From Pseudomonadota bacterium (GTDB lineage Bacteria > Pseudomonadota > Gammaproteobacteria > SURF-13): DNA of 64,000 bases. This document shows positions 1,459 through 29,462 of the stretch, one piece after another; the first letter of the stretch is position 1; each line of letters opens with the position of its first letter. The position numbers and the translations under genes are program-made. The notes under the pieces were generated by a model. The model ran no database searches. It was not told the origin of the DNA and worked only from the letters and a program-made list of their open reading frames with translations. The DNA lies in NCBI GenBank assembly GCA_027624315.1, contig JAQBXX010000001.1:62203-126202 (forward strand), written 5' to 3'.

Positions 1459-1572
1459 GGGTACAGTAACATCTCCGTTACGTCCCCGCCCCTTGTTTAG
1501 GGGGCGGGACAGGGTGGGGGTAGAGTAAGGATTGAGATTTTACTTAGAAGGAGCAAAGTAAGCGATATCCGC

Positions 1573-2106
1573 TTACTTCGCTCCTTCTAAGTAACGCTGC
1601 AATTCCGCATCGAGATGCCCCTGCGCCTCCATGATGAGCTCGCACACATCACGCGCCGCGCCGCGCCCGCCCGGGCTCGGCGTTTGCCAGTGCGCATGCG
1701 CCTTGACCAGCGGATGCGCGTCCTGCACCGCGATGGCGAGACCGGCCCGGCGCATCGCCGGCAGATCCACCACGTCATCGCCTACAAATGCCGTTTGCTG
1801 CGCCTCTACGCCAAGCTTGGCGAGCAGCGTCTCGAACGCCGGCAGCTTGTCCGTATGGCCCTGATACACGTGCTCCACGCCCACGTTGGCCATGCGGTGC
1901 GCCACCACCTGCGAGGTGCGCCCGGTAATCACCGCGATATGCACGCCGGTGCGCTTCAGCATCTTCATGCCATGCCCGTCGCGCGAGTGGAAGGCCTTGT
2001 ATTCCTGGCCGTCGTCGCCGAGATAGAGGCTGCCGTCGGTGAGCACGCCGTCCACATCGAACACGACGAGTTTGATCTGCGCGGCCTTGGCGAGGATGTC
2101 TTTCAT
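1573..2106 (-). CDS. kdsC: 3-deoxy-D-manno-octulosonate 8-phosphate phosphatase KdsC (HAD family)
   Basis: HAD motif LVVFDVDGVLTDG and YrbI-like sequence. Start set at the ATG at 2106 (MKDILAKAAQ). An alternative upstream ATG at 2199 would run through a repeat-rich spacer. Confidence 0.7.
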   Translation of the reverse strand: MKDILAKAAQIKLVVFDVDGVLTDGSLYLGDDGQEYKAFHSRDGHGMKMLKRTGVHIAVITGRTSQVVAHRMANVGVEHVYQGHTDKLPAFETLLAKLGVEAQQTAFVGDDVVDLPAMRRAGLAIAVQDAHPLVKAHAHWQTPSPGGRGAARDVCELIMEAQGHLDAELQRYLEGAK

Positions 2107-2211
2107 AAATACAGTAGCGAGTGGCGAGTAGCGAGGAAATGAATACTTATTTAGAGTGTGTAGCCGGGTAGCTTTTGCTCGCCACTCGCCACTCGCCACT
2201 CGCTACTGTAG

Positions 2212-3216
2212 TCATATCACACCTGCACGCAACAGATCGTGCATGTTGAACGCGCCGACCAGCGCGCCTTTTTCATCGACCACGGGCAGCGCGTTGATCT
2301 TGTGCTTCTGCATGAGTTGCAGCGCCTCGGCGGCGAGCATCCCGGCGCGCGCGGTCTTGCCGCCGCGCGTCATCACCTGGGTGATCGGTGTCGTGTGCAC
2401 ATCGATCGCATGGTCGAGCGCGCGGCGCAGGTCGCCGTCGGTGAAAATGCCGAGCAGGCGGTCATCGGCGTCCACGACAGCGGTCATGCCCAGCCCTTTG
2501 CGCGTCATCTCCAGCAGCGCGTCACTGAGCGACGCCTGCTGCGTCACCTTCGGGATGCGCTCGCCGCTGTGCATGATATCGGCGATCAACAGCAACAGGC
2601 GCCGCCCCAGACGCCCGGCGGGATGCGAGCGCGCGAAATCCTCGGCGGTGAATCCGCGCGCCTCCAGCAGCGAAACCGCCAGCGCATCGCCCATCACCAG
2701 CGCCGCGGTAGTGCTCGCGGTAGGTGCGAGCCCGAGCGGACAGGCCTCCTGCGCCACGCTCACGTCGATGTGCACGCTGGCCATGCGGCCGAGCGTGGAG
2801 GCCGGGTTGCCGGTGAGCGCGATGAGCGGCACACCGAGGCGCTTGATGAGCGGCACAATGGTGAGAATTTCGTCGGTCTCGCCGGAGTTGGAGAGCGCGA
2901 GCACCACGTCCTTCGCGGTGATCATGCCGAGATCACCGTGGCTCGCCTCGCCGGGATGTACAAAAAACGCCGGGCTGCCGGTGCTGGCCAGCGTCGCCGC
3001 AATCTTGCCGCCGATGTGGCCGGACTTGCCCATGCCGATCACCACGATGCGCCCCTCGCAGTCCAGCATGTACTGGCAGGCACGCACGAAGTTCGCATCG
3101 ACGCGCGCGGCGAGTGCAGCCACCGCCTTGGCCTCGGTGTCGATCACGGCCCGCGCCATGCGCTGGAGTATCACGTCATCCATGCGCCGCCGGGCGGATT
3201 GGGCAGAACGATTCAT
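2212..3216 (-). CDS. kdsD: arabinose-5-phosphate isomerase KdsD (SIS plus tandem CBS domains)
   Basis: 334 aa with a SIS domain (VVIGMGKSGHIGGKIAATLASTG) and C-terminal CBS pair. Conserved order kdsD-kdsC-lptC-lptA-lptB. Confidence 0.9.
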   Translation of the reverse strand: MNRSAQSARRRMDDVILQRMARAVIDTEAKAVAALAARVDANFVRACQYMLDCEGRIVVIGMGKSGHIGGKIAATLASTGSPAFFVHPGEASHGDLGMITAKDVVLALSNSGETDEILTIVPLIKRLGVPLIALTGNPASTLGRMASVHIDVSVAQEACPLGLAPTASTTAALVMGDALAVSLLEARGFTAEDFARSHPAGRLGRRLLLLIADIMHSGERIPKVTQQASLSDALLEMTRKGLGMTAVVDADDRLLGIFTDGDLRRALDHAIDVHTTPITQVMTRGGKTARAGMLAAEALQLMQKHKINALPVVDEKGALVGAFNMHDLLRAGVI

Positions 3217-3443
3217 GGCGCTAAGTGTATAGGAATCATGGGGCAGTCACAAAACCGGCTTTATACATAGCGTCAGAAATCGTAGCGAGCGGCTTTCAGG
3301 CGGGGGCGGTGGAGCGCAGGAACCGGAGTGTACAAGTCAGTCTGCCGCTACGCGGCCCCGGATTCCGAGCACCGCACGCACCGGCATCAAAGACGCGCAG
3401 TAGATTTGTGGCGCTATGTATGGATAGTATAGTGGCGAGGAAT

Positions 3444-3878
3444 ATGAACTACTGGCTGATGAAATCCGAGCCCGATGCGTTCGGCATCGACGACCTCAAA
3501 CAGCGCCCGGCGCAGACCGAGCCGTGGGACGGTGTGCGCAATTATCAGGCGCGCAATATGATGCGTGATGACATGCAGGTGGGCGATCAGGCGTTTTTCT
3601 ACCATTCCAACTGCGCCGTGCCCGGCATCGCGGGCATGATGAAAATTGTCCGGGCGGGTTATCCCGATGCCAGTGCGTTCGATCCGCGCGGAAAACACCA
3701 TGATCCGAAGAGCACGCCCGATAACCCGCGCTGGTTTCGCGTGGATGTGCGCTACGTGCGCAAATTCAAACGCCTCATCAGCCTCGCCGAACTCAAGGCG
3801 CATCCCGAACTGCGCGGCCTTGCGCTGCTCCAGCGCGGCAACCGCCTGTCCATCATGCCGCTGACGACGGCGCAATAG
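3444..3878 (+). CDS. EVE (PUA-like) domain protein
   Basis: MNYWLMKSEPDAFGIDDL...WDGVRNYQARNMMRDDMQVGDQAFFYHS is the EVE/thymocyte-nuclear-protein-1 family signature. Start taken at the ATG at 3444, not the upstream ORF start at 3225. Confidence 0.75.
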   Translation: MNYWLMKSEPDAFGIDDLKQRPAQTEPWDGVRNYQARNMMRDDMQVGDQAFFYHSNCAVPGIAGMMKIVRAGYPDASAFDPRGKHHDPKSTPDNPRWFRVDVRYVRKFKRLISLAELKAHPELRGLALLQRGNRLSIMPLTTAQ

Positions 3879-3960
3879 AAATTCATTCTGTCGCTGGAAT
3901 AGCCACTACCGGAGAATGATCCTACCCCCATTTCACGGACACCCGGCTAAGAGAATAAAC

Positions 3961-4017
3961 GGCGCGCTCAAAAACCAAGTGCAACATTTTTCAGGAGAAA
4001 ATGTTGCATGGGAAAAA
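3961..4017 (+). mobile_element. solo IS30-family left inverted repeat (remnant)
   Basis: ggcgcgctcaaaaaccaagtgcaacatttttcaggagaaaatgttgcatggg matches the reverse complement of the left end of the complete IS30 copy (45050-45101) nearly base for base. It includes the transposase ATG and then diverges. No transposase ORF follows. Confidence 0.5.
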
Positions 4018-4076
4018 ACTTAGCTATCAAGCAGGAATATCGCAAGTCCCCGCGTCCGGACCCCCCGGACGCTGAC

Positions 4077-4337
4077 TTAATACCACTCGCCCGGATTGGC
4101 GCGCCTGCGGTAGGCATCCGTAAACATCACTAGAGCGGCGAGCACACAGAGCAGACCGAACACGACCAGCGTGCGCGGGAGCGAGCTCATGTCATCCCAC
4201 ATCATCTGCATGTGTTCGGCGAAGTGCAGCAGTGACGATTGCAGCAGCAGGAGCGAGTCCGCCACATACAATCCGAGCCATACCAGTGCGATACCGGTCA
4301 CCAGCAACGGCCAGCCAAGGGGTGGTGCACGCCTCAT
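4077..4337 (-). CDS. small two-transmembrane membrane protein (hypothetical)
   Basis: 86 aa (MRRAPPLGWPLLVTGIALVWLGLYVA...LVVFGLLCVLAALVMF) with two hydrophobic helices. A GGAGA Shine-Dalgarno lies 6 nt upstream of the ATG at 4337. It is the C-terminal part of an otherwise spurious 231-aa ORF. Confidence 0.4.
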   Translation of the reverse strand: MRRAPPLGWPLLVTGIALVWLGLYVADSLLLLQSSLLHFAEHMQMMWDDMSSLPRTLVVFGLLCVLAALVMFTDAYRRRANPGEWY

Positions 4338-4369
4338 ACGATCATCTCCGGACAGGGTGTGCGGCCATT

Positions 4370-5773
4370 CTACAACGCCTCGGAGGCGTAGTCTGCAAGC
4401 CGTGAGCGCTCGCCGCGCATGAGCGTGATATGCCCGCTGTACTGCCAGGCCTTGAACCGGTCCACCACATAGGTCAGGCCCGAGGTGGTCTCGGTGAGAT
4501 ACGGCGTGTCGATCTGCGCCACGTTGCCAAGGCACACCACCTTGCTGCCCGGCCCGGCGCGCGTGATCAGCGTCTTCATCTGCTTGGCGGTGAGGTTCTG
4601 CGCCTCGTCTAGAATGATGAATTTGTTGAGGAAGGTGCACCCGCGCATGAAATTGAGCGAGCGTATCTTGATGCGGCTGCGCAGCAGGTCGTGGGTGGCG
4701 GCGCGGCCCCAGTCGCCGCCGACATCGGACTGGGTGAGCACCTCCAGATTGTCCATCAGCGCGCCCATCCACGGCGTCATCTTCTCTTCCTCGGTGCCCG
4801 GCAGGAAGCCGATGTCTTCCCCCACCGGCACCGTCACGCGCGTCATGATGATCTCGCTGTAGCGCTTTTCATCCAGCACCTGCTCCAGGCCCGCGGCGAG
4901 CGTGAGCAGCGTCTTGCCCGCGCCCGCGGTGCCGAGCAGCGTGACAAAATCGACCTCGGAGTCCATCAGCAGATTGAGCGCGTAATTCTGTTCGCGATTG
5001 CGCGCGTTCACGCCCCACACCGCATGACGCGCGGTGCGGAAATCGCGTACCAGCTCGATCGTCGCGCTCTCACCCTCCAGCGCGCGCACGATGGCCTCGA
5101 AGCCGCTCTCATCCGCGCTGAACAAGAACTGGTTCGGACACCAGTGCGCCACCTCCGGGCCGCTGATCTTGTAAAACGTGCGCCCGCTCTCCTGCCACGA
5201 CGCCATGTTCTTGCTGTGCGTGTCCCAGAAATTCGCGGGCAGTTCCCCGGCGCCGCTGTAGAGCAGGTTGACATCGTCCAGCACCTGATCGTTGTAGTAG
5301 TCCTCGGCATACACCCCGAGCACCGCTGCCTTGATGCGCAGGTTGATGTCCTTGGAGACCAGAATCACCGTGACGTCGCGGTGCTCCTGTTGCAGCGCGA
5401 TCACCGTGCCGAGGATGTTGTTGTCCGGGCGATGGCCGGGCAGCGCCTCGTGCAGTTCGAGCGGCATGCGGCGGGTCTGAAAAAACAGACGCCCGTGGGC
5501 GCCGGCCGCCTGACTGAAGGCCGGCAGCGCAAGTCCGCGGTCGATCTCGTCCTTGCTCGCGTTGCGCATCAGATCGTCGAGAAAGCGGCTCACCTGACGC
5601 ACGTTGCGCGCGACTTCCGACAGACCCTTCTTCCCCGCGTCCAGCTCCTCCAGCACCATCATCGGCAGATAGACGTCGTGCTCCTGAAAGCGGAAGATCG
5701 CGGTGGGATCGTGCATCAACACATTGGTGTCGAGCACGAACAAACGCTTGCCGGTGATTTCTTTTCTGGTCAT
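4370..5773 (-). CDS. PhoH-like ATPase with N-terminal PIN domain (YlaK family)
   Basis: N-terminal PIN (LFVLDTNVLMHD) and C-terminal PhoH P-loop (LLGTAGAGKTLL...FIILDEAQN). Start assigned at the ATG at 5773 (MTRKEIT). Confidence 0.85.
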   Translation of the reverse strand: MTRKEITGKRLFVLDTNVLMHDPTAIFRFQEHDVYLPMMVLEELDAGKKGLSEVARNVRQVSRFLDDLMRNASKDEIDRGLALPAFSQAAGAHGRLFFQTRRMPLELHEALPGHRPDNNILGTVIALQQEHRDVTVILVSKDINLRIKAAVLGVYAEDYYNDQVLDDVNLLYSGAGELPANFWDTHSKNMASWQESGRTFYKISGPEVAHWCPNQFLFSADESGFEAIVRALEGESATIELVRDFRTARHAVWGVNARNREQNYALNLLMDSEVDFVTLLGTAGAGKTLLTLAAGLEQVLDEKRYSEIIMTRVTVPVGEDIGFLPGTEEEKMTPWMGALMDNLEVLTQSDVGGDWGRAATHDLLRSRIKIRSLNFMRGCTFLNKFIILDEAQNLTAKQMKTLITRAGPGSKVVCLGNVAQIDTPYLTETTSGLTYVVDRFKAWQYSGHITLMRGERSRLADYASEAL

Positions 5774-5799
5774 ATAACCTATAGTTCGCAACGCTAATT

Positions 5800-5896
5800 C
5801 CCTCCCCCTTTATGGGGGAGGGTTAGGGTGGGGGTGTGGTAACCGGCATCATTTCACCCCCATCCCCGCCTTCCCCCATCAAGGGGGAAGAAGTCA
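5800..5896. repeat. GC-rich REP-like repeat family, two adjacent units
   Basis: ccctccccctttatgggggagggttagggtgggggtg followed by cacccccatccccgccttcccccatcaagggggaag. Shares the core GGGGGAGGG..AGGGTGGGGGT with copies at 1476, 6411, 29408 and 16651 (inverted). Confidence 0.7.
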
Positions 5897-6370
5897 TTAT
5901 GCACCCAGCGCCTTTACCGCCTCCACCACCTCATCCACGTGCCCCTCCACCTTCACCTTGCGCCACTCCTTGCGCAACACGCCGCTCTGGTCGATGAGAA
6001 AGGTGCTGCGCTGCATGCCCACCACTTCCCTGCCGTACATCATCTTGGGCTGCATGACGTCAAACAGCGTGCATACCTTTTCGTCCGCGTCGGACAGCAG
6101 ATCGAAGCTGAAACCCTCCTGCTCCTTGAACGACTCGTGCGACTTCACGCTGTCGCGCGACACGCCCAGAACCACGGTATTCAGCCTGGCGAAGCGCGCC
6201 GCAGCATCGCGGAAATTCTGCCCCTCCAGCGTGCAGCCCGGCGTGTTGTCCTTGGGGTAGAAATACAACACGACGTTTTTTCCCTTCAGGCCGGAAAGCG
6301 CGATGCGCTTGCCGCCGGTGGCGGGCAATTCGAAATCCGGCACGGCCTTACCGACACTCACCTTGCTCAT
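5897..6370 (-). CDS. bcp: thiol peroxidase Bcp (peroxiredoxin)
   Basis: 157 aa with AhpC/TSA motif YFYPKDNTPGCT. Conserved gcvR-bcp neighbourhood. Confidence 0.9.
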   Translation of the reverse strand: MSKVSVGKAVPDFELPATGGKRIALSGLKGKNVVLYFYPKDNTPGCTLEGQNFRDAAARFARLNTVVLGVSRDSVKSHESFKEQEGFSFDLLSDADEKVCTLFDVMQPKMMYGREVVGMQRSTFLIDQSGVLRKEWRKVKVEGHVDEVVEAVKALGA

Positions 6371-6410
6371 GTTGCACCTCGTACATTATCAACGCAGCAA
6401 CAAAACATAT

Positions 6411-6470
6411 CCCCTCCCCCTTGACGGGGGAGGGCCAGGGTGGGGGTGAAATGCCTGACCCTCACCCAAC
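6411..6470. repeat. GC-rich REP-like repeat
   Basis: cccctcccccttgacgggggagggccagggtgggggtgaaatgcc forms a stem-loop (ccctccccc/gggggaggg) followed by the agggtgggggt motif. Confidence 0.7.
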
Positions 6471-6482
6471 CCTCATATAACC

Positions 6483-7013
6483 CTAGCGCTTAAGCGGCTC
6501 CAGCACCCCGTCCAGATTCATCTCCTCGCACAGATTCATGAACTCATCGCGCAGCGCCGCAATGTGCACCGAGGCGGGGATGTTGACCGTCAGGTTGAGC
6601 GCAAACATCGGCGTGGCGGAATGCGCCGAGGTATAGCCGCTGGTGTAGAGGTCTTCGATGTTGATACTGCGCGCGGTGAAAAAGTCCGCCATGCGGTAGA
6701 TGATGCCGGGACGGTCCACGGTGACGATCTCGGCGATGTAAGGCAGCAGCGGAGTCTCGGTGGAGCGCACCTCGGTACGGCGGGCGCTGATCGTGAGCCC
6801 CAGCCGCTCCTGCAACGCGGACAAGCCGCCCTCCACCTTGGCAATCGCACTCCAGTTGCCGGTGATCATGAGCACAGCGGCAAACTCGCTCCCCAGCACC
6901 GTCATGCGGCTGTCGGCGATGGTGCAGCCGCACTCCATCAGCGCCTGCGCCAACTCCTTGAGCAGCCCGGGCCGGTCTTTACCCAAGGCGGAAATAACGA
7001 GCAAGACTTTCAT
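6483..7013 (-). CDS. gcvR: ACT-domain glycine cleavage regulator GcvR-like protein
   Basis: 176 aa with two ACT-like halves. It sits upstream of bcp, as gcvR does in enterobacteria and pseudomonads. Confidence 0.7.
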   Translation of the reverse strand: MKVLLVISALGKDRPGLLKELAQALMECGCTIADSRMTVLGSEFAAVLMITGNWSAIAKVEGGLSALQERLGLTISARRTEVRSTETPLLPYIAEIVTVDRPGIIYRMADFFTARSINIEDLYTSGYTSAHSATPMFALNLTVNIPASVHIAALRDEFMNLCEEMNLDGVLEPLKR

Positions 7014-7186
7014 TCGATATGGGCGCCCCAGCGCAACATTGGATAATGTGGATATTGATGGGATGTTAAGTGACTTTCATTATACAAACAATTCACCACC
7101 GCGGAAAAAGAAAAGCCCCTCGTGAGAGGGGCTTTGAGTAATTGGGCTTGTTTCGTATTCAGCCCAACAGTGCTTGTTGTGATGGG

Positions 7187-7610
7187 TTACAGCTTACAGA
7201 GAATTGGAGCAGAGCCTTGCGCGGTCAAGCATCCGCTACCGGTTTTAGCCCAAGTCGTAGCGCCGACACCCAAAGTAGGAATCAATATTAAAGTGGATGC
7301 CGCATTAGTGGTGGAGGTTGGCGTTACGGTAATAGTTCCATTTGCGACAGCAATGGACGCTACATGAGTTGTTGCTTGTGTGGCGGGGATGCCATTTGTC
7401 TCAATATCACAGCCTGTAACGGTACCAAGTTCTTGTGCACAGATAGCAACAGCGGTTTTGTATGCGCTTGACACTGCAACCACTTCTGCGAATTTAGCCT
7501 TAAACGTGTAATCTTGGTAAGCTGGAATCGCCACAGCCGCCAGAATACCAATGATGGCGACCACGATCATCAATTCAATCAGGGTAAAGCCTTGTTGCAG
7601 CTTTTTCATA
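7187..7610 (-). CDS. pilA: type IVa pilin (PilA)
   Basis: [34 protein letters not shown] is the class III signal peptide with the N-methylphenylalanine site. A C-terminal Cys...Cys loop is present. The gene is AT-rich relative to its flanks. An AGGAGC Shine-Dalgarno lies 7 nt upstream of the ATG at 7610. Confidence 0.85.
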
Positions 7611-7704
7611 ATGTGCTCCTCAATGTAGGTTAAATTTTTAGCAACCTCGAGCCCGGTCTTGTAGCAGGTGACTACGGACTCGAAGCTTGACGGGCAACTA
7701 CTCA

Positions 7705-7720
7705 GCAGCATTCGTGCCAC
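7705..7720 (-). promoter_or_regulatory. sigma-54 (-24/-12) promoter candidate for pilA
   Basis: The minus strand reads TGGCACgaatgCTGCT, matching TGGCAC-N5-TTGCW, about 95 nt upstream of the pilA ATG. Pilin genes in pseudomonads are typically RpoN/PilR dependent. Confidence 0.5.
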
Positions 7721-8007: not shown

Positions 8008-8160
8008 GGGAAGCTCTGATTTATTCAGAGCTTCCCTGCGGCACACGGATGTGCCGCCATTTCTCAAACACGCAAGTGTTTGAGAAATGAAGAAAAACGA
8101 AAATCGCATTTTCGTTTTTCGTCTCTGAAAATTCCATGGATGGAATTATTCAGAGTTTCC
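8008..8160 (-). repeat. composite multi-hairpin intergenic element, copy A (inverted relative to copies C and D)
   Basis: The reverse complement aligns module by module with 28922-29075 and 31843-31984. The modules are ctctgaataattcc..ggaatt..cagag, gaaaaacgaaaatgcgattttcgtttttc, tttctcaaacacttgcgtgtttgagaaa, gcggcacatccgtgtgccgc and gggaagctctgaataaatcagagcttccc. Confidence 0.8.
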
Positions 8161-8179
8161 TTAGTAAGGGAGAGTCGCC

Positions 8180-12017: not shown

Positions 12018-12119
12018 GTAGGTTGGGTTAGGCGCGTTTTTTGCGCCGTAACCCAACCAAAACCTGCGTTGAAGATTGGGTTTGTTGGGTTACGCGATAA
12101 AGCCGCTAACCCAACCTAC
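12018..12119. terminator. bidirectional terminator between convergent ppk and ppx (two nested hairpins)
   Basis: gtaggttgggttaggcgcgTTTTTTgcgccgtaacccaacc and ttgggttacgcgataaagccgctaacccaacctac are inverted repeats built on a ggttgggtta core, with a T-run in the centre. Confidence 0.6.
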
Positions 12120-12123
12120 ATAA

Positions 12124-13644
12124 TTAGACCAGCTTCAACCTGATACCGGCACTCTTGAGGTGGGTGATCTCTTCCTCCAGATCAGCATGCGTCAACGGCT
12201 GGCGCGCGGCCCAGGATTTTGGCAGCGTAATCTTCAGACTCTTGCCTGCGGCGGCGCATGCAAGGCGCGGCGGTGGCCGTGTGCTGCGGCTGCGGTTCAG
12301 CAGCCCCGCCAGCCGCAGCAGCACGCACAGATGCAGCCCCGCCTGCTTCAGCCTGCCGGGCAGCACCTCGAACGCCTGCACAGGAATTTTTCCACGCTGG
12401 CCCAGCACCAACACCGCCAGCAGTTGCTGATCGCGGCGCGAAAAGCCAGCCATGTCGGTATGTTCCGCGAGATAGGCGCCGTGCTTGTGGTGCTGACCGT
12501 GGCTGATCGAAAGACCCATCTCATGCAGACGCGCAGCCCATCGCAGCAGGCGCTCATCCTCCAGGTCATGCAGATGCCAGGCCTGCGTCACCTGCTTCAA
12601 CAATAGCAGGGCCATACGCTCCACGCGCAGCGCCTGCGCCGCATCAACGTGCGTGCGCAGAGCAAGCCACTGCACGGCGCGCTCACGCACATCCTCGCGC
12701 CTGCGCAGACGACCCAGCATGTCATGGAGCACGCCCTCGCGCAGCGCGCCATCGGCATTCGTCATGCGCGTAATGCCCAGACTTTCGAAGATCGCAATCA
12801 GGATGGCGACACCGCCCGGAAACACTCCGGCGCGCTCGCTGCGCAACCCGTCCAGCTTGAGCCGTTGCACACTGCGCGCAGCGATCAGCGCCTTGCGCAG
12901 TGTGTGCAGACTGGCCAGCGTAATGCCGTGCTCACTCCAGCCCTGGGCACGGACCACGTCCTGCACGGTGTTGATGGTGCCCGAGGCGCCGATGCATTCA
13001 CGCCAGCCGATGGCGCGGTAACGCGCCGCCAGCGGCTGCAACTCCTGCTGGGCGGCGATCTGCGCCCGCTCGAAATTGGCGCGGCTGATCACGCCCTTGG
13101 GGAAAGAACGCAAGCTGCCGCGCACACACCCCATGGCCAGACTTTCCATGTGCAACGGCTCAAATCCCCGGCCGATGATCAACTCGGTGCTGCCGCCGCC
13201 GATATCCACCACCAGGCGTCGCTCTTTGCTGTCGGTCAGACTGTGCGCCACGCCGAGGTAGATGAGCCGCGCCTCCTCCCGGCCGCCGATCACCTCGATG
13301 GGATGGCCCAGCACGCGCTGCGCCGCGGCGAGAAATTGCACCGCATTGCGCGCCCGGCGCAAGGTGTTGGTACCGACCACACGCATGCTGCCCGGCGGCA
13401 GGCCGCGCAGCCGTTCGCCAAAGCGCCTGAGACAGGCCAGCGCGCGCTGCTGAGCGCGCGCGGTGATGTCGTCCTTTTTATTCAGGCCAGCGGCGAGCTG
13501 CACCATCTCACGCAGCCGGTCCAGCACCTGCAACCGCCCCTGCACCACACGCGCCACAATCATATGAAAGCTGTTGGAGCCGAGATCGACCGCGGCGACC
13601 ATGTCAGGTGATTTATTTGATGTGCGCGCCAATGAATTCTCCAC
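12124..13644 (-). CDS. ppx: exopolyphosphatase (Ppx/GppA family)
   Basis: 506 aa, AAVDLGSNSFHMIVARV...; Ppx/GppA plus HD-like C-terminus. Convergent with ppk. Confidence 0.9.
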   Translation of the reverse strand: MENSLARTSNKSPDMVAAVDLGSNSFHMIVARVVQGRLQVLDRLREMVQLAAGLNKKDDITARAQQRALACLRRFGERLRGLPPGSMRVVGTNTLRRARNAVQFLAAAQRVLGHPIEVIGGREEARLIYLGVAHSLTDSKERRLVVDIGGGSTELIIGRGFEPLHMESLAMGCVRGSLRSFPKGVISRANFERAQIAAQQELQPLAARYRAIGWRECIGASGTINTVQDVVRAQGWSEHGITLASLHTLRKALIAARSVQRLKLDGLRSERAGVFPGGVAILIAIFESLGITRMTNADGALREGVLHDMLGRLRRREDVRERAVQWLALRTHVDAAQALRVERMALLLLKQVTQAWHLHDLEDERLLRWAARLHEMGLSISHGQHHKHGAYLAEHTDMAGFSRRDQQLLAVLVLGQRGKIPVQAFEVLPGRLKQAGLHLCVLLRLAGLLNRSRSTRPPPRLACAAAGKSLKITLPKSWAARQPLTHADLEEEITHLKSAGIRLKLV

Positions 13645-16650: not shown

Positions 16651-16740
16651 TCCTCTCCCTCACCCTGGCCCTCCCGGAGGGAAGAGCGAAGCGAAGGGTG
16701 CGGGGATATTAACTCCTCCCTCCGGGAGAAGGCTGAGATG
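16651..16740. repeat. GC-rich REP-like repeat (inverted orientation variant)
   Basis: ccctcaccctggccctcccggagggaag...ctcctccctccgggagaagg. The caccctggccctccc segment is the reverse complement of gggagggccagggtg at 6430. Confidence 0.55.
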
Positions 16741-23026: not shown

Positions 23027-23027
23027 C

Positions 23028-23831
23028 TTAGTTATGCTGCGCTGCCGTGATTACGCCATCGATCAGGCCTTCGTCATCCGCCTGCTCCGCCACCACTGCT
23101 TTGCCAAAACCCAGGCTGCGCGCACATTCGGCGTTACGCGCGCTCATCACCACGAGCCGGGTGTGTCGCAACAGCGGCTGTCCCTGCACGCCTGCCATCT
23201 CGAACAGATTCTGCAAGCCCTCGTTGCTAGTGACAACCATAACGACTTTTTTATTGTCCTCCAATACCCGCACCAATTCCGCACCTTCACACACAGGCCG
23301 CACGCGCCGGTAGACCTCGGCGTAACTCACGTGTGCGCCGCGCTGAGTGAGCGTCTCGCCCAGTAAGGCGCGGCCGCCAGTGCCGCGAAAGATTACGATA
23401 TTTTTTCCCTGCACGTTCTGCATTTCCGGCAGCGCGAGCAAGGCCTCGCTGGTGAAACCCTCCTGCGGTTGAATATCGGCCCGCAGCCCATGCGCCTGCA
23501 ATACCTCGGCGGTGCGTCTGCCGATGGCCGCCACACGCAGCCGCGCCGGAAAACCCGCGCGCGCGGCAATCATGGGCGCGGCCTTGTGCACCGCATTTGC
23601 GCTCACAAAAATGGCGAGATCGAATTCGTCCAGACGCTGGATCAACGCACGCGCCGGGCCGCTATCCTCGACGTCAATGATTTCCAGCACGGGGAACAGG
23701 ACAGCGCGACCGCCGCGCGCCTCGATCAGATGGCACAGACGCGCCGCCTGATGACGCGGGCGCGTCACCACCACCGTGACACCTGCCAGAGTATCAGCGG
23801 CTATCGGCAAAGCGTTCGTCGGCATAGACAT
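23028..23831 (-). CDS. hemD: uroporphyrinogen-III synthase
   Basis: HemD family. Start set at the ATG at 23831 (MSMPTNALP...), giving the usual overlap with the hemC 3' end. The ORF begins at 24008. Confidence 0.75.
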
Positions 23832-24744
23832 CGCGCAGAATCTCGCGCGCGCCGCGCGCGAGCAGATCATCGGCGAGCGCGATGCCGAGCTGCTCGGCCT
23901 CCGCCTGCGGGCCGCTGACCGCGCCGCGCACCACCGCGCTGCCGTCGGGCCGGCCCACCAGACCGCGCAAACTGAGCAAGCCTGCGGCGAGCAGCGCATG
24001 GCCCGCAATCGGTACCTGACAGCCGCCCTGCAGGCGATGATTCATGGCGCGCTCGGCACTCACTCGGAGGTGCGTCTCGGCGTCGTCCAGCACACGGATG
24101 AGATCATGTACGCGCGCATCGTCCGTACGGCACTCGATGCCGATGGCACCCTGACCGACGGCGGGCAGGCTCACCTCCGGCTCCAGCAACTGCGTGATGC
24201 GCGCACCGAAGCCGAGGCGCAACAGGCCCGCAGCGGCGAGTATGACTGCGTCGAACTCGCCCTCATCCAATTTCCTGAGGCGCGTATTCACATTGCCGCG
24301 CAGACTGACGATGTGCACATCCGGACGCCGCTCCTGCAACTGACACTGCCGCCGCAGACTGGACGTGCCCACGCGCGCACCCTGCGGCAACGCATCCAGC
24401 TTGGCATAGCGGTTAGACACAAACGCATCACGCGGGTCTTCACGCGCGCCGATCACCGGCAGACACAGGCCCGCCGGAAACTCCATCGGCACATCCTTCA
24501 TCGAGTGCACGGCGATATCGGCGCTGCCATCGAGCAGCGCCTGCTCCAGCTCCTTCACGAACAATCCCTTGCCGCCCACCTTGGACAGCGGCGTGTCGAG
24601 AATCTTGTCGCCCTGGGTGCTCATGCGCACCAGCTCTATCTGAATTCCGGGATGAGCCGCGAGCAGGCGGTCGCGCACATGTTCGGCCTGCCACAGCGCG
24701 AGCGGGCTTTTGCGTGTGGCAATGCGCAGTGTCTGTGTTGACAT
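23794..24744 (-). CDS. hemC: hydroxymethylbilane synthase (porphobilinogen deaminase)
   Basis: 316 aa, [18 protein letters not shown]...; the HemC signature. Confidence 0.9.
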
Positions 24745-24771
24745 GGTATTCCCTAGAAATCAAAGCACTAA

Positions 24772-24934
24772 CAGGCTGTTGAAAAAGTCCGTCCAGGACT
24801 TTTTCAACCACGTAAAGCAAAAAATGTGATTTTTGCTTTACTTCATTTTTCAAACACTTACGTGTTTGAAAAATGGCGGCACATCCATGTACCGCACCGC
24901 AGGCTGTTGCAAAACAGAGTTTTTCAACAGCCTG
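24772..24934 (+). repeat. composite multi-hairpin intergenic element, copy B (variant terminal hairpins)
   Basis: The central modules gtaaagcaaaaaatgtgatttttgctttac, tttttcaaacacttacgtgtttgaaaaa and ggcggcacatccatgtaccgc are conserved with copies A, C and D. The terminal hairpins are replaced by caggctgttgaaaaagtccgtccaggactttttcaacc and caggctgttgcaaaacagagtttttcaacagcctg. Confidence 0.75.
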
Positions 24935-24992
24935 CTAATGCTAAGGCCTGCGCCGCCGCGAGGCAAACACTACCTGCGGAACGCGTTCGTAC

Positions 24993-25727
24993 TCACCCCG
25001 ACTTCATGCGCCGACGCAGCTCCGCCACATGCCGACGGCTGACTTCGAGCCGTTCTTCAATACCACGTAAACGCACCAGGCTATTGCCCGCAACGTCCCT
25101 CTCCAGCACGCTGATTCTGGCCGCGGCCACCAGCGCATTGCGGTGAATGCGTACAAAGCACTCACCAAACTCCTCCTCCAATGTCTTGAGTGCATCCTCG
25201 ATCAGCACCTCGCCCTCGGGGGTACGCACCGTGACGTATTTCTGGTCGGCCTTGAAATATACGATGTCGGCGACCGGAATGAGCTGGAGTGTGCCGTGCG
25301 CGTGGGCGCTGAGATATCTGCGCGCACGTGCCTCACCACTGTCGCGGCGCACAACGGCAAGCTGCGCCCGGTTCATCATCCGTGTCTTGCTAAGTGCATG
25401 CTCCAGTTGCTCTTTACGGATCGGCTTCAACAAGTAATCCGTGGCGTGCGCCTCGAAGGCGGCGAGCGCATGATCGCCGTAGGCGGTGGTGAAAATCACG
25501 GCGGGCGGCTCGTCCAGCAGGGCGAGATGCAGCGCAGCCTCCAGCCCGTCCAGCTCCGGCATGCGGATGTCCATCAGCACAACCTCCGGCAGCAACACCG
25601 CAGCGCGTGCCAGCGCCTCCTTGCCGTTGGCCGCCTCGCCTACCACCTCGTGGCCGCCAAGTTCGGCGACGAGCCCGCGCAGGCGTTCGCGCGCGAGGGC
25701 TTCGTCATCCACAATCAGAATTTTCAT
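24993..25727 (-). CDS. algR: LytTR-family response regulator AlgR
   Basis: Receiver domain (MKILIVDDE...DIRMPELDG) plus a C-terminal LytTR DNA-binding domain. Conserved algZ-algR-hemC synteny. Confidence 0.85.
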   Translation of the reverse strand: MKILIVDDEALARERLRGLVAELGGHEVVGEAANGKEALARAAVLLPEVVLMDIRMPELDGLEAALHLALLDEPPAVIFTTAYGDHALAAFEAHATDYLLKPIRKEQLEHALSKTRMMNRAQLAVVRRDSGEARARRYLSAHAHGTLQLIPVADIVYFKADQKYVTVRTPEGEVLIEDALKTLEEEFGECFVRIHRNALVAAARISVLERDVAGNSLVRLRGIEERLEVSRRHVAELRRRMKSG

Positions 25728-26830
25728 GCGTCGGACTGCACACAAGGAAAGCGGAGGCGGACACTGTAGCGCCAGCCGTTATGCTCGTCAGCCTCATCGA
25801 TGACAAGTCCGGCTTTCGTACCATAGTAAGCCACCAGACGCTCACGTACGTTGTCCACTGCGATGTGGTTGCTGTGCGGACGAAACAGCGCACCTTGTGG
25901 CGCTACCGGATTGGTGAGTGTAATTTCTATGATGCCGCCCGTATCGCGGCCCTGAATGGCGATCACGCCACCTTCCGCCAGCGGCTCAATGCCGTGATAG
26001 ACGGCGTTCTCCAGTAACGGTTGCAAGGTCAGCACCGGCACCAGCGCATCTTCCGGCACGGCATCCATATCCCACTCCACGCGCAGGCGTTCTCCCAGAC
26101 GCAGGTGTTCAATATCCAGGTACTTGCGCACCATGGCGAGTTCCTCGTGCAATGGCACGCGATTGCGCGCATCGGCCAGGCTCGCACGGAACAGGTCGGC
26201 GAGGTTCACCACTGCCGCCTCCGCCAGCTCCGGGCGGCTGCGCGTTAGACTGGCGATGATATTCATGCTGTTGAACAGGAAATGCGGCCGGATGCGCGAC
26301 TGCAGGGCCTGGATGCGTGCGTTGGACTCCGACTCGATGTTGCTCTTCCACTGGTGCTGCACATAAAAATAGCGCAACGCCACCGCGCTGATGATCGCGC
26401 TCACCGCGAGACTGCGCAGCAGAAAATCATAATGCCAGAACGCGGGCAATGGAATACCGACGACGTCACTCTGCAGCAGCCAGTACGCCGCCTCGCTGAC
26501 CAATGCCGTGACCGCAAGTAACAACAGGTAGCTCAGCAGCGCGGCGGCGCGGTTGGGCACGCGGGCAAGCCAGCGGCGGCTGGCGCACAACGCTGCGGCG
26601 CTGGTAAGCGCCACCCACTGCACAAACAGCGAGAGCACGCTGAGATCGGCCCAGCGGTCGCCGCTCTCCAGCGCCCCCAAGGCCAGCACCAGGGCAAGCA
26701 ACTCGGCGATCACCATGAGCGCCAGCACCATGCGCACACCGCAGAAATCGGGCAGAAACAGCGTGTCGCGGGAGGCTGTGGCGTTAATACTGAACTCCTT
26801 AGTAATCTTTCGAATACAGCATATAATAAC
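25724..26830 (-). CDS. algZ: sensor histidine kinase AlgZ/FimS (LytS/YehU-type)
   Basis: N-terminal transmembrane helices plus a His_kinase domain (HFLFNSMN...[13 protein letters not shown]). The 5' end is uncertain: a TAAGGAG Shine-Dalgarno is followed by an in-frame ATT, with no ATG before the conserved N-terminus. The ORF extends to 26974. ATGA overlap with algR. Confidence 0.7.
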
Positions 26831-26857
26831 GCAGCATCCGGCAACAGCGCGCAAAAC

Positions 26858-28249
26858 ATGGCCAAAAACACATCCACTGAAAAGCCCTGGGCAGGCCGCT
26901 TCACCGAACCCACCCAGGCCTTCGTCGAGGCCTTCACCGCCTCCGTCGGCTTCGATCATCGCCTCTACAGGCATGACATCGCGGGCTCACTGGCGCACGC
27001 GCGCATGCTTGCGCACATCGGCGTGCTCAACTCCGCCGAGTGCGAGAAAATCGTGGGCGGGCTGCAGGCGATTGAGCATGCCATTGACCAGGGCAAATTC
27101 GAATGGTCGATAGCGCTGGAAGACGTGCACATGAACATCGAGGCGCGCCTTATCGAGCGCATCGGCGAGGTGGGCAAGAAACTGCACACTGGCCGCTCGC
27201 GCAATGATCAGGTGGCGACCGACATGCGGCTGTATCTGCGTGATGAAATCGACGCGGTACTGGCCGAGATGCGCCGCCTGCAGGGCGCACTGCTCGACGT
27301 AGCCGAGCGCGAAGCGGAAACCATCATGCCCGGCTATACCCATCTGCAAGTCGCGCAGCCGGTCACCTTCGGCCATCACCTGCTCGCCTGGTTTGAAATG
27401 CTGGCGCGCGACGCCGCGCGTCTGCGCGAGTGCCGTGTGCGCGTCAACGTCATGCCGCTCGGCTCGGCGGCGCTTGCCGGTACGAGCTACCCGATTGACC
27501 GCAATTACACGGCCCAACTGCTCGGCTTCGACGCGCCATGCGAAAACTCGCTCGATGCGGTCAGCGACCGCGACTTCATCATCGAATTCGTGAGTGCCGC
27601 TGCGCTGCTCATGACGCACCTGTCGCGCTGCTCCGAAGAGCTGGTACTGTGGTCGTCCACGCAGTTCGGCTTCGTCGATCTGGGTGATGCGTTTTGCACC
27701 GGCTCGTCGATCATGCCGCAAAAAAAGAATCCCGACGTGCCGGAGCTCGTGCGCGGCAAGGCGGGGCGTGTGAACGGCCACCTAGTGGCGCTGCTCACCT
27801 TAATGAAGGCGCAGCCGCTCGCCTACAACAAGGACAATCAGGAGGACAAGGAGCCGCTGTTCGACACCGTGGACACGGTGAAGGGTTCGCTGCACGTATA
27901 CGCCGACATGATTCCCGCCCTGCGCGTCAATCGCGCGGCGATGCTGCACGCCGCGCGCAGCGGCTTCTCCACCGCCACCGATCTTGCGGATTATCTGGTG
28001 CGCAAGGGCGTGGCGTTTCGTGATGCGCACGAAGTCGTGGGCAAGGCGGTGCGTCACTGCATCGACTGCGGCCGCACGCTGGAGCAGCTCACGCTGGAGG
28101 AGTTGCGCGCGCACTCCCCTGTCATCGGCCAGGACGTATTTGCCGTGCTCACGGTGGAGGGCTCCGTCGCGGCGCGCGACCATGTGGGCGGCACCGCGCC
28201 GGCGCAGGTGCGCGCCGCGCTCAAACGCGCGCGCGCCCGTCTGGGCTAG
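26858..28249 (+). CDS. argH: argininosuccinate lyase
   Basis: 463 aa with fumarate-lyase signature [12 protein letters not shown]. Confidence 0.95.
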
Positions 28250-28271
28250 CAACAGCTTCGAGAGACCGCCC

Positions 28272-28910
28272 ATAAAACGTCAACTTTATCTGCTTGCACT
28301 GTCGCTGCTAACGGCCGTTGCTCTGTCGTCCGGAGGATTCGCCGCAGACAAACTCTACAAATAGGTGGACGACAAGGGCGAGGTGCATTACGGCGACAAG
28401 ATCCCGCCGGAATACGCGCAGCAGGGCCACACGGAACTCAACAAGCAGGGCGTCACCGTCAAGACCACCGAGGGCGCCAAAACCGAAGAGCAGCTTGCCG
28501 GGGAAGAGCGCAAACAGCAGGCCATGGCGGATGAAAAACGCCGCGCCGACGAACAGGTCGCGCGCGACAAGGTACTGCTAAACACCTATGCGAGCGAGAC
28601 CGACATCACCCAGACGCGCGACAGAAAGCTTGCGATGATCAATGGCGAGATCACCCTGCACACAAGCTACAGCGAGAACCTGAAAAAACATCTGGCCGGC
28701 CTGGCCAATGAGGCCGCCGCTTTTGAGAACTTGGGCAAACCCCTGCCGGAGAGATTACAAAAGGATATCCGTGAGTCCACGGCGCAGGACGAAAAATACA
28801 CCACCTTCATCAAGACCAAACAGAACGAACAGGACGCTATCAAGCGCCAAGCCGAGGCCGATATACAGCGTTTCCGTGAGCTCAAGGGCGCCACTGGCGC
28901 CAAACCGTAG
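28272..28910 (+). pseudogene. DUF4124 periplasmic protein gene disrupted by a start-codon change and an in-frame amber codon
   Basis: The frame reads (ATA)KRQLYLLALSLLTAVALSSGGFAADKLYK-TAG-VDDKGEVHYGDKIPPEY. DUF4124 proteins have a signal peptide followed by YKWVD. Here the Trp codon is TAG (28362-28364) and the expected ATG is ATA (28272-28274). The downstream ORF 28365..28910 starts only on a GTG with no Shine-Dalgarno. Confidence 0.5.
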
Positions 28911-28921
28911 CGGGTTACTTA

Positions 28922-29075
28922 AGGAAGCTCCGAATAATTCCATCCAGGAATTATTCAGAGCACGAAAAACAAAAATGCGATTTTTGCTTTTCTTCACGTT
29001 TTTCAAATACTTACGTATTTGAAAAATGGCGGCACATCCATGTGCCGCAGGAACCTCTGATTAATCAGAGGTTTT
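28922..29075 (+). repeat. composite multi-hairpin intergenic element, copy C
   Basis: ggaagctccgaataattccatccaggaattattcagagc, acgaaaaacaaaaatgcgatttttgcttttc, tttttcaaatacttacgtatttgaaaaa, gcggcacatccatgtgccgc, aggaacctctgattaatcagaggtttttt. Lies between two convergent gene ends. The last module resembles an intrinsic terminator. Confidence 0.8.
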
Positions 29076-29078
29076 TTA

Positions 29079-29354
29079 TTATTTCCGGTCCCCGGTCTCG
29101 AGTTCGGCCCCCACCACCCTGCCGCGCGCATCGAGCCGCACACGGAAGCGCCCCCAACAGGCGACGCGCCCGGCCTCACAGCCGGAACCTTCCATGATGA
29201 CCTCGTCGAATCTCACTGCACACAGCGCCTGCTCGTCGTCCTCCTCCAGCAACTCAATACGCATACTGGCCGGATCCGGCCAGCCGTTTTGCGTGCACAG
29301 TTGTGCAAGCCCGGAGGAAGCGGAAAAAAATTCCTGCAAACTGGTTTGATCCAT
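29079..29354 (-). CDS. hypothetical protein (91 aa)
   Basis: An ORF with typical GC3 bias and acidic stretches. No family recognised from sequence alone. Confidence 0.45.
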   Translation of the reverse strand: MDQTSLQEFFSASSGLAQLCTQNGWPDPASMRIELLEEDDEQALCAVRFDEVIMEGSGCEAGRVACWGRFRVRLDARGRVVGAELETGDRK

Positions 29355-29407
29355 CGCGCCGTTACGATCAGATTACTTATAAGTCAGTAAGTAAGGTTCC
29401 ACGTCCC

Positions 29408-29462
29408 GCTACGTCTCCGCCCCCTGTTTAGGGGGCGGGATAGGGTGGGGGTAGAGTAAACA
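29408..29462. repeat. GC-rich REP-like repeat, near-identical to the copy at 1476-1530
   Basis: ctccgccccctgtttagggggcgggatagggtgggggtagagtaaac against 1476-1530 tccccgccccttgtttagggggcgggacagggtgggggtagagtaagg. Confidence 0.75.

Follow-up and report, generated by a model that had tools for sequence, protein, structure and literature searches.

Among the short repeats described in bacterial genomes, the class of G/C-rich intrastrand triplexes of the class II purine-motif kind (BoxC / PIT / TMECO) is already known and widespread, and the earlier work on BoxC / PIT reportedly comprises studies by Bachellier et al. in the 1990s and by Hoyne & Maher in 2000 and 2002. The TMECO pattern was defined as CCCTCNCCC N3-6 GGGNGAGGG N3 GGGNGAGGG (Holder et al. 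2015, PMC4666352). The E. coli units are intergenic, show no strand bias and occur also as inverted A/B pairs (PMC4666352), and no transposase remnants were noticed near TMECO sites (Holder et al., PMC4666352). Triplex formation by these units has been evidenced in vitro by NMR and CD; in vivo DMS footprinting in E. coli did not detect a stable triplex (PMC4666352).

The window discussed here is the whole stretch of DNA that was analysed, 64 kb in length. The repeats which a preliminary description had noticed at its gene boundaries are present at the places given there; they comprise four strong copies and one inverted partner, and the copy claimed at 16651 turned out to be degenerate. The 22-mer GGGGGMGGGNNAGGGTGGGGGT has four exact matches in the window (at 1500, 5814, 6426 and 29431, all on the + strand) against 0.01 expected from shuffles; a fifth, with 3 mismatches, is at 5856-5877 on the - strand. 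A rule-based triplex finder tolerating one flaw hit the window 4 times, 20 shuffles not at all and unrelated metagenome loci totalling 570 kb twice. Copy 1 was missed by this finder because of two flaws, one being a C:G inversion and the other a shift in stem register. What had been called a hairpin plus tail does contain the hairpin, and in fact consists of three blocks in the following order on one strand: a C-rich arm (C-arm), a loop of 3-7 nt, a complementary G-block (G1), a loop of about 3 nt and a second G-block (G2) mirroring the first. The features are as follows.

1484-1521, + strand: triplex unit copy 1; C-arm 1484-1492 (CCCCGCCCC, with a flaw in register), G1 1500-1508 (GGGGGCGGG), G2 1512-1520 (GGGTGGGGG); conserved core 1475-1528.
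5800-5835, + strand: triplex unit copy 2, of type A with all 9 triads perfect; C-arm 5800-5808, loop TTTAT, G1 5814-5822, loop TTA, G2 5826-5834.
5856-5890, - strand: inverted partner of copy 2, type B, 8 perfect triads; C-arm 5883-5890 (CTTCCCCC), G1 5870-5877 (GGGGGAAG), G2 5857-5864 (GATGGGGG).
6412-6447, + strand: triplex unit copy 3, of type A with all 9 triads perfect; C-arm 6412-6420, loop TTGAC, G1 6426-6434, loop CCA, G2 6438-6446.
6459-6483, - strand: truncated inverted partner of copy 3, reading GGGTTATATGAGGGTTGGGTGAGGG, without C-arm.
16651-16690, - strand: degenerate relative with only 5 triads, CCCTC/GAGGG followed by CCA and GGGTGAGGG.
29416-29452, + strand: triplex unit copy 4; C-arm 29416-29424 (TCCGCCCCC), G1 29431-29439 (GGGGGCGGG), G2 29443-29451 (GGGTGGGGG); core 29406-29459.

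The single stem first ascribed to all copies, CCCTCCCCC/GGGGGAGGG, does not apply to copies 1 and 4, whose stem is CCCCGCCCC or TCCGCCCCC with GGGGGCGGG. These two copies are near-identical, as had been noted, with a common core of 54-57 nt at 94% identity; in copy 4 the finder scores one flaw, a T opposite a C:G inversion, and a T·G stands at the stem end. The two units recognised at 5800-5896 are an inverted pair with tails facing, the second being of another triad type, and together they make a BoxC-like palindromic pair. According to gene calls all copies are intergenic, and rather than directly after stop codons they lie downstream of a minus-strand gene, 12-52 nt from its stop codon; they are also just upstream of the following gene. 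The relative at 16651-16690 folds no better than shuffles (z=0.03) and is possibly a relic or a chance match, and the remainder of the inverted variant once drawn there (16693-16740) is not a unit.

The blocks follow one another on a single strand in the order pyrimidine, purine, purine. Watson-Crick complementarity joins blocks 1 and 2 over 8-9 bp with at most one mismatch (perfectly so in copies 2 and 3 and the type B partner, with the register flaw in copy 1), and block 3 is block 2 reversed under purine-motif rules (G versus G; A or T versus A), with zero flaws in the same three units. The loop pairs seen are TTTAT/TTA, TTGAC/CCA, TTGTTTA/ACA, TGTTTA/ATA and TTGAT/GCGGG. The literal TMECO pattern has 0 matches in the window, and the window variant departs from it solely at triad 6, where T·A*A is replaced by C·G*G in a three-way compensatory manner: position 6 of block 3 is G where the pattern has A, which matches the G in block 2, and so the structure is kept. 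The E. coli unit at tauD|hemB, TTCCCTCGCCCCCTTGGGGAGAGGGTTAGGGTGAGGG, is directly similar to the window units (identity about 80%). The repeats are intergenic, have unbiased orientation and occur in inverted pairs, with that at 5800-5890 in the window and downstream inverted partners in many other loci; Rfam 15 at gathering score gave no match in the window. We consider it likely that they are members of the BoxC / PIT / TMECO class of putative intrastrand triplexes.

Hairpins were chosen by stem alone and the position of T/A in the third block was scored. On CCCTCCCCC/GGGGGAGGG stems the tail GGG[T/A]GGGGG was found 47 times and GGGGG[T/A]GGG once, while on CCCCCTCCC/GGGAGGGGG stems the figures were 0 and 28 (p=6e-20 for the contrast between stem types). 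Opposite the A:T pair stands either T or A and no other base, in agreement with purine-motif rules, and the mirror rule holds also in 32 unselected units; it speaks against the triplex reading that in viral contigs a third block is present on only 38% and 21% of such stems. As the T/A of the third block tracks the A·T pair of the stem in mirror fashion, a triplex is favoured over a G-quadruplex or an alternative hairpin. Orthologous sites, too, keep the mirror rule as their sequences change. At bcp|phoH three related genomes have three different triad types with the rule kept, and at ACT|bcp the G2 base is T in the window and A in the genome L453, again in keeping with the rule. The L453 orthologue of copy 3 has GGGAGGGGG as G2, and the truncated inverted partner (6459-6483) is absent at this orthologous site. 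Copy 1 and its L453 orthologue both have flawed C-arms, which indicates that individual copies can decay. Covariation establishes three-strand complementarity, at the level of sequence, as a conserved and selected feature.

The repeats had been supposed to be a species-specific family, and this did not hold: the exact 22-mer, nearly always with its C-arm before it, is present in more than 10 phyla and at least 120 stretches; a large part of the records across phyla are MAGs, in which some contamination is possible. Loops and flanks of these units are lineage-specific and there are several copies per genome, and a near-identical unit of 36-40 nt is found in groups as far apart as CPR bacteria, Chloroflexota and Proteobacteria.

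Several other explanations deserve attention. The repeats could act at the RNA level, with the transcribed GC hairpin, and in copies 1 and 4 also the hairpin of 21-25 bp, protecting upstream mRNA from 3' exonucleases, serving as an RNase III site or masking the next RBS, and with the third block irrelevant. The hairpins are indeed very stable as RNA, all single copies of the window lie between co-directional genes, and at bcp|phoH, where the TM unit is kept in 3 of 3 genomes, the purine arm (GGAGG) stands in all three at Shine-Dalgarno distance from the phoH2 start. Against this, the conserved, covarying third block is left unexplained by an RNA hairpin function, and the uniform orientation seen in the window (C-rich strand = sense) proved not to be general when other genomes were checked: among 70 classifiable cases orientation to the flanking genes was SS 25, AA 20, AS 15 and SA 10, with no preference, nor was any strand, transcription or replication bias found (GC skew 52 versus 59). 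Termination, one of the roles proposed at first, is unlikely, since just 1 of 5 hairpins has a T-run, and a weak one; no GC hairpin with a proper U-run of the intrinsic terminator kind was found, the sole weak run being GATATGTTTT at 6434-6412 (- strand). It speaks in the same direction that the E. coli relatives, PIT elements, were reported (Hoyne & Maher 2002, as cited in PMC4666352) to act neither as promoters nor as terminators. Purine-motif triplexes are quoted as not forming with RNA (Semerad & Maher 1994, cited in PMC4666352). An RNA-level function as the reason for these repeats is considered unlikely.

It might also be assumed that the four G-tracts of G1 and G2 fold as a G-quadruplex in DNA or RNA, that this fold is selected and that the C-arm is a competing switch. 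The layout GGGxGxGGG-NNN-GGGxGxGGG does offer four G3 tracts with 3-nt loops, and 5 of the 6 canonical G4 motifs in the window are these units. A G-quadruplex, however, has no use for the C-arm, which accompanies nearly all of the 123 cross-phylum 22-mer matches; it puts no constraint on which interruption is A or T, yet the mirror rule is obeyed; and the type B unit (GGGGGAAG...GATGGGGG) would be a poor one. In NMR of E. coli units the 18 imino signals pointed to a triplex rather than a G-quadruplex (PMC4666352). A selected G-quadruplex is thought quite improbable.

In a further alternative it is the sequence and not the DNA fold that is conserved, because a conserved protein binds there, for example a topoisomerase or a protein of the nucleoid or of repair. 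This would agree with the near-identity of the 36-40 nt sequences across phyla, which extends to the loop TTGAC/TTGAT; loops and triad types nevertheless vary freely provided that the mirror rule holds, and mirror symmetry is not what is expected for dimeric proteins binding a duplex. We know of no candidate binding protein, and the explanation seems very unlikely.

Copies 1 and 4, at the least, lie within larger insertions, which are listed below.

1443-1590, - strand: composite inserted element A, 148 nt.
1540-1594, no strand assigned: long hairpin of element A, 25-nt arms, 5-nt loop.
29368-29511, - strand: composite inserted element B, 144 nt, layout as in element A.
29471-29517, no strand assigned: long hairpin of element B, 21-nt arms, 5-nt loop.

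Element A, whose parts are the long hairpin, a spacer of 11 nt, the triplex core and a tail of 33 nt, sits between kdsC codon Y172 and the ancestral Leu-stop/lptC start. In the relatives L446, L447 and L448 the kdsC|lptC site is empty (...CGC TAT CTG TGATGCGCC...) and the kdsC stop overlaps the lptC start; in L453 the orthologous site is filled. Element B sits between an R codon of argB and the ancestral Ser-stop (TCGTAA, still at 29362-29367), and the argB|orf91 site of the relative L450 is empty (...ATT CGG TCG TAA GTGCGTG ATG); the ArgB C-terminus of relatives reads GTLIRS*/GTLLRL*, and the window ArgB ends otherwise. From the empty sites in close relatives it follows that copies 1 and 4 belong to inserted elements of 148 and 144 nt, and they demonstrate insertion one codon before the kdsC and argB stops. 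The elements are recent and supply the final 5 codons of kdsC and the final 11 of argB. Their hairpins are the longest and second longest inverted repeats in the window (RNA fold -64 kcal/mol, z=-9.2 for A; z=-9.3 for B), with the outer 4 nt (1591-1594) in A being native kdsC sequence and the outer 6 nt (29512-29517) in B native argB sequence. The hairpin of A differs from that of L453 by 3 double compensatory changes, which indicates that it is maintained, and a third element copy, with a hairpin homologous to that of B, lies at a different locus in L446. Neither terminal inverted repeats nor a clear target-site duplication, as expected of a MITE, was found at the two filled/empty sites, and the left flanks are TTAC and CCGG, with no common target (n=2 sites).

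The REP/BIME reading of the preliminary description was thus right in part. A dispersed, intergenic, hairpin-containing repeat family, sometimes with inverted pairs as in BIMEs (5800-5890) and linked to local genome change, has been borne out; REP identity has not, as the unit has three blocks, the third obeying triplex mirror rules, and no window copy is a 20-40 nt imperfect palindrome with a GTAG-type tetranucleotide adjoining the stem on its 5' side. Mobilisation by RAYT as a REP/BIME family, in spite of the dispersed palindromic lifestyle, the inverted pairs, the presence/absence between relatives and a GTAG after G2 in copies 1 and 4, is hardly credible given that the unit is not a simple palindrome, that this GTAG is 14 nt from the next stem and missing from copies 2 and 3, that the core is common to more than 10 phyla (REP families being, to our knowledge, species- or genus-specific) and that no Y1/RAYT gene (Y1_Tnp, PF01797) is present in the parts of the window with Pfam-annotated genes (roughly 1-44 kb and 55-61 kb).

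The triplex reading leads to the following model, in which the fold is deduced from the sequence rules together with what has been published on E. coli units. Once the G-rich strand is single-stranded, for example in replication, repair or transcription, the C-arm and G1 would form a 9-bp hairpin, and G2 would fold back antiparallel onto G1 with reverse-Hoogsteen G*G:C and T/A*A:T triads, giving a class II purine-motif triplex. The units behave as small dispersed elements gained, lost and exchanged between close relatives, and they could spread in the form of folded single-stranded DNA that an enzyme acting in trans mobilises; the evidence on mobility consists of two empty sites and one relative genome. 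For the host the consequences are probably incidental for the most part, namely additional GC hairpins between cistrons, changes to gene ends and instability of the local sequence. Tentatively, and as a possibility rather than an expectation, the triplex core may provide pan-bacterial non-autonomous elements moving in this form with a module for structural recognition. If this were true, the module would correspond, on the basis of a triplex, to the ends of REP/RAYT or IS200/IS605, an intramolecular DNA triplex would be directly under natural selection in vivo, and there would be an explanation for the wide occurrence, CPR bacteria, Chloroflexota and Proteobacteria included, of a near-identical 36-40 nt unit that covaries in three ways, for insertions of about 145 nt appearing and disappearing between close relatives, and for triad types replacing each other at the same intergenic position.

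Compared with known systems, the window units share with REP/BIME the short GC-rich intergenic hairpins, often in inverted pairs, with many copies per genome and strain differences, and differ in the triplex-rule third block, the lack of a stem-adjoining GTAG and the cross-phylum core. Elements A and B resemble IS200/IS605-derived PATEs and MITEs in size (about 150 nt), prominent hairpins, non-coding character and precise insertion versus empty sites, and are compatible with the IS200/IS605 type in having hairpins near the ends with neither terminal inverted repeats nor evident target duplication; in contrast to PATEs and MITEs they have no identified cognate transposase, and their hairpin sequence differs between copies with the structure kept. 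With TMECO/PIT/BoxC the units have in common the block order, the block length of 9, loops of 3-6 and 3, second-loop types TTA and CCN, intergenic position, absence of strand bias, inverted A/B pairs, and being present, absent or mutated between close relatives. Unlike TMECO, which are of E. coli and other Proteobacteria, repeats of the window type are spread far beyond Proteobacteria, include extra triad types (GGGGGAAG/GATGGGGG; GGGGGCGGG with T opposite a C:G pair) and have one subfamily inside a hairpin-core-tail element of about 145 nt with empty sites, whereas Holder et al. reported no mobile-element link. Homopurine/homopyrimidine mirror repeats that form H-DNA are similar in having a mirror-symmetric purine strand, in G*G:C and T/A*A:T triads and in being associated with polymerase stalling and instability, but H-DNA arises from a duplex mirror repeat under supercoiling; the window units have three blocks in tandem on one strand, and so their fold would need single-stranded DNA and not a long duplex tract.

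It had been claimed in a preliminary description that a GC-rich unit is repeated in the window, and direct reading of the sites concerned bore this out. The window pattern scan gave four exact matches to GGGGGMGGGNNAGGGTGGGGGT, at 1500, 5814, 6426 and 29431, all on the + strand, where 0.01 are expected from dinucleotide-preserving shuffles; a fifth match with 3 mismatches lies on the - strand at 5856-5877. No match to the window was found in Rfam. Each unit is composed of three blocks on the same strand. The C-arm (CCCTCCCCC in copies 2 and 3) is separated by a first loop of 5-7 nt from the complementary G-block G1 (GGGGGAGGG), which is followed after a second loop of 3 nt by the second G-block G2 (GGGTGGGGG). 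Rather than repeating G1 directly, G2 is G1 reversed, with T facing the A (the mirror rule).

Triplex units of the window
1484-1521, + strand: copy 1, in element A (1443-1590, kdsC|lptC)
5800-5835, + strand: copy 2
5856-5890, - strand: inverted partner unit of the other triad type, CTTCCCCC / GGGGGAAG / GATGGGGG, obeying the mirror rule
6412-6447, + strand: copy 3
29416-29452, + strand: copy 4, in element B (29368-29511, argB|orf91)

Class II purine-motif triplexes consist of a Watson-Crick hairpin and an antiparallel third strand, held in G*G:C and T/A*A:T triads. Judged by sequence, the unit layout is that of such an intrastrand triplex. A C:G inversion (GGGGGCGGG) faced by T is found in copies 1 and 4; this variant is rare outside the window (1 match in viral contigs). 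The stem of copy 1 has an additional register flaw. The predicted folds of the unit DNA hairpins range from -8.6 to -12.6 kcal/mol. A rule-based triplex finder (8-9 triads, at most one flaw) returned 4 units in the window, 0 in 20 shuffles and 2 in 570 kb of unrelated metagenome loci; these loci with a bcp homologue, at no more than 67% identity, were too distant as empty sites and served as the background set. Of the inverted variant claimed at 16651-16740, the part at 16651-16690 is a degenerate relative, perhaps a relic or perhaps chance, having 5 triads only and a fold no better than shuffles.

The mirror rule was examined in a collection of viral contigs scanned for the two stems only, with the tail left free. 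A GGGNGNGGG tail was present in 51 of 136 CCCTCCCCC/GGGGGAGGG hairpins, and such a tail in 28 of 136 CCCCCTCCC/GGGAGGGGG hairpins; all 84 tails counted had distinct contexts. On the former stems the tails were GGGTGGGGG (30), GGGAGGGGG (17), GGGAGAGGG (6) and others (3), on the latter GGGGGTGGG (14) and GGGGGAGGG (14), with none of the opposite kind. Tabulated as stem against tail register (47, 1 / 0, 28), the association has p=6e-20, with kinship among copies only partly controlled, and it follows from this table that the interruption of the third block, which is T or A only, mirrors the A:T pair of the stem. The same three stem/tail combinations recur in 32 unselected units of genome loci. 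The register seen is the mirror one, opposite to what would be expected of a direct repeat or of pairing with the C-arm in an alternative hairpin. It is the three-strand complementarity that is conserved in the units.

Orthologous sites provide a further comparison. At ACT|bcp, G2 is GGGAGGGGG in L453 (a locus of a related genome) versus GGGTGGGGG in the window. At bcp|phoH, a unit stands at the same place in the window, L453 and GCA_030655395.1 with three different triad types, each obeying the mirror rule: the window pairs type A with inverted type B, L453 has type B only, and the unit of GCA_030655395.1 is E. coli-like. In the same three genomes the purine arm of the unit hairpin (containing GGAGG or AAGGAGG) is found at Shine-Dalgarno distance from the PIN-PhoH start, and the hairpin could mask this ribosome-binding site, since the C-arm resembles an anti-SD sequence.

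Purine arm near PIN-PhoH
Window, 5773-5822
L451 (locus of GCA_030655395.1), 640-705
L453, 1223-1290

Two further observations were made at these loci. Upstream of bcp, L451 1-110 holds a nested GC-rich palindrome (AAATCCCCC...ACCCCCTTTGCAAAGGGGGT...GGGGGATTT), which occupies the position of the triplex unit in the window and L453 and may come from another repeat family. PIN-PhoH of L453 (1283-1573), adjoining the triplex unit, is called as a 96-residue fragment versus 473 residues in the window; this could be local instability or an assembly problem.

The family is widespread. At least 120 stretches of a species-representative genome collection contain the exact 22-mer of G1, loop and G2; part of the records are MAGs and some contamination is possible. 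Among the matches listed, the carriers are Dehalococcoidia, Anaerolineae and other Chloroflexota, Nitrospirota, Planctomycetota, Actinomycetota, Bacteroidota, Armatimonadota, Auribacterota, two CPR lineages, Thermodesulfobacteriota and other 'delta' groups, and Alpha-, Beta- and Gammaproteobacteria, including isolates of Azospirillum, Aminobacter, Herbaspirillum and Falsiroseomonas. Nearly all of these listed matches have the C-arm and a short loop, frequently TTGAC or TTGAT, in front of them, and in many an inverted partner follows downstream. Loop and flank sequences are specific to the lineage, and several genomes hold multiple copies sharing flanks. With such a distribution over many phyla, the species-specific family proposed earlier has to be given up. 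A search of a plasmid collection with the 148-nt element A gave no match.

The single copies of the window all stand with co-directional genes whose sense strand is the C-rich one. This uniformity is not a property of the family, as 123 units in other genomes showed no bias to gene orientation (G-strand against flanking genes: SS 25, AA 20, AS 15, SA 10), local GC skew (positive 52, negative 59) or coding strand (share 0.51), and an orientation rule was rejected. For this count, genes were predicted by codon usage, with training on the retrieved loci and a check limited to the genes called in the first 12 kb.

Two of the units, copies 1 and 4, are parts of lineage-specific insertions. Protein searches place the window in a gammaproteobacterial MAG; the relatives retrieved bear the name Gammaproteobacteria, Thiohalobacter being about 75% identical. 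The kdsC|lptC site is empty in GCA_030655395.1 (KdsC 94% identical) and a JGI relative (89%), where the stop of kdsC and the start of lptC overlap (...CGC TAT CTG TGATGCGCC); the KdsC C-terminus is RYL* in 9 of 9 aligned relatives. In the window, kdsC has a 148-nt insert (1443-1590) after codon Y172. Likewise, argB of the same relative ends ...ATT CGG TCG TAA, with orf91 starting 7 nt on, and window argB carries a 144-nt insert (29368-29511) after CGG, the old TCGTAA being kept to the right of it. As a result KdsC is longer by 4 residues and ArgB by about 10, and LptC has an upstream in-frame start. Both inserts are built of a long hairpin, an 11-nt spacer, a triplex core of 54-57 nt and a tail of 33-39 nt, and their hairpins are the two longest inverted repeats of the window. 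A third copy, whose hairpin is homologous, whose spacer is equally long and whose tail is the same, is present at another locus of that relative genome (L446, ~2725-2880). Upstream of the window's own kdsD there is no copy, but with the differing gene order this is no empty-site comparison with L446. In L453, where genes are ordered as in the window, the orthologous kdsC|lptC insert is present; three double compensatory substitutions and one G·T repair separate its 25-bp hairpin from that of the window.

No convincing target-site duplication or terminal inverted repeats were found at the two insertions, and no Y1 transposase among the annotated genes at ~1-44 kb and 55-61 kb of the window. TTAC as an IS608-like target holds for site A only and was rejected. 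It was also considered that the long palindromes are inverted duplications of native gene ends, made through polymerase stalling at the triplex. This reading was rejected because relatives end KdsC with RYL* and ArgB with LIRS*, so that most of both arms is inserted; the homology of the copy 4 hairpin to one at another locus of a relative genome also speaks against it. Long palindromes showed no general enrichment beside units elsewhere. The last native kdsC codons are CGT TAC in the window (1591-1596), CGC TAC in L453 and CGC TAT in the empty-site genomes (L446/L447), synonymous changes that extend the inserted-hairpin pairing into the gene by 1-2 bp.

Other features of the window were noted as well. 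An unrelated family of AT-rich 32-nt palindromes (CATTTTTCAAAYAC-NNNN-GTRTTTGAAAAATG; 4 copies versus 0.00 expected, arm changes compensatory) could be an operator or another small repeat. A perfect palindrome with 17-nt arms (CAATAAAAAACCCGCCA T TGGCGGGTTTTTTATTG) and A/T runs on either side looks like a bidirectional intrinsic terminator. A stretch of low GC (0.53 versus ~0.61) with an HNH gene, a PIN/MazE toxin-antitoxin pair and a gene with an ISL3-type DDE match may be a small genomic islet. Near the ppk/ppx boundary lie the ends of scaffold_675 and scaffold_3538 of ENA ERZ23495043; the NCBI contig version is 129 kb.

Other features of the window
8058-8089, 24844-24875, 28997-29028, 31905-31936: AT-rich palindromes, all intergenic
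~12100-12300: ENA scaffold ends
34977-35011: perfect palindrome
36000-40000: low-GC stretch

We propose that the G-rich strand, once single-stranded, would fold into a triplex, and that the units may be dispersed as non-autonomous elements, which an enzyme encoded elsewhere might handle as folded single-stranded DNA. Effects on neighbouring genes would be mostly incidental: the new C-terminal tails on KdsC and ArgB, the LptC start, added hairpins between cistrons and the purine arm at Shine-Dalgarno distance of phoH2. A G-quadruplex is one rival: of the six canonical motifs that the 64-kb window contains, five belong to triplex units, but a G-quadruplex predicts no dependence of tail on stem and does not need the C-arm. 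Each of the rivals (this one, a function as RNA hairpin, a REP/RAYT system, a protein-binding site) fits less well with the mirror covariation, the absent orientation bias or the cross-phylum distribution. The units should be annotated as BoxC/TMECO-type triplex repeats and not as REPs, terminators or small ORFs; their translation gives G-E-G-W-G-like peptides, and they distort gene ends. Covariation of third block and stem in many phyla and at orthologous sites could ease the question whether DNA triplexes matter in cells, and the position of units within precisely bounded insertions could likewise make it more tractable; biophysical and genetic tests would be well served by these natural compensatory variants and by the pairs of filled and empty sites.

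The REP/BIME interpretation thus stands in part only, and the units are assigned instead to the BoxC/PIT/TMECO class. TMECO, earlier named BoxC and then PIT (Hoyne & Maher), has the pattern CCCTCNCCC N3-6 GGGNGAGGG N3 GGGNGAGGG; Holder et al. 2015 (PMC4666352) counted 3610 copies over 262 proteobacterial genomes. The copies, in E. coli K-12 always intergenic, are without strand bias, and inverted pairs invariably combine one type A and one type B unit; a stable triplex was seen in vitro by CD and NMR and was not detectable in vivo, the units showed no link to mobile elements, and sequence variability between strains is raised near units (PMC4666352). As cited there, Hoyne & Maher (2002) observed no promoter or terminator activity. 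Neither third-block covariation nor filled/empty-site analysis was found in Holder et al. 2015 (PMC4666352), and the literature search found no other description of the window variant. The literal TMECO pattern does not match the window units: TMECO has A at G2 position 6, whereas the window units have G, and since the C-arm has C and G1 has G at the corresponding place, C·G*G stands instead of a T·A*A triad. The weak blastn match in E. coli (79-83% over ~45 nt) is itself a TMECO unit, TTCCCTCGCCCCCTTGGGGAGAGGGTTAGGGTGAGGG, between tauD and hemB. The window units are members of the BoxC/PIT/TMECO structural class, and they are a sequence variant of this known and poorly understood group of repeats.
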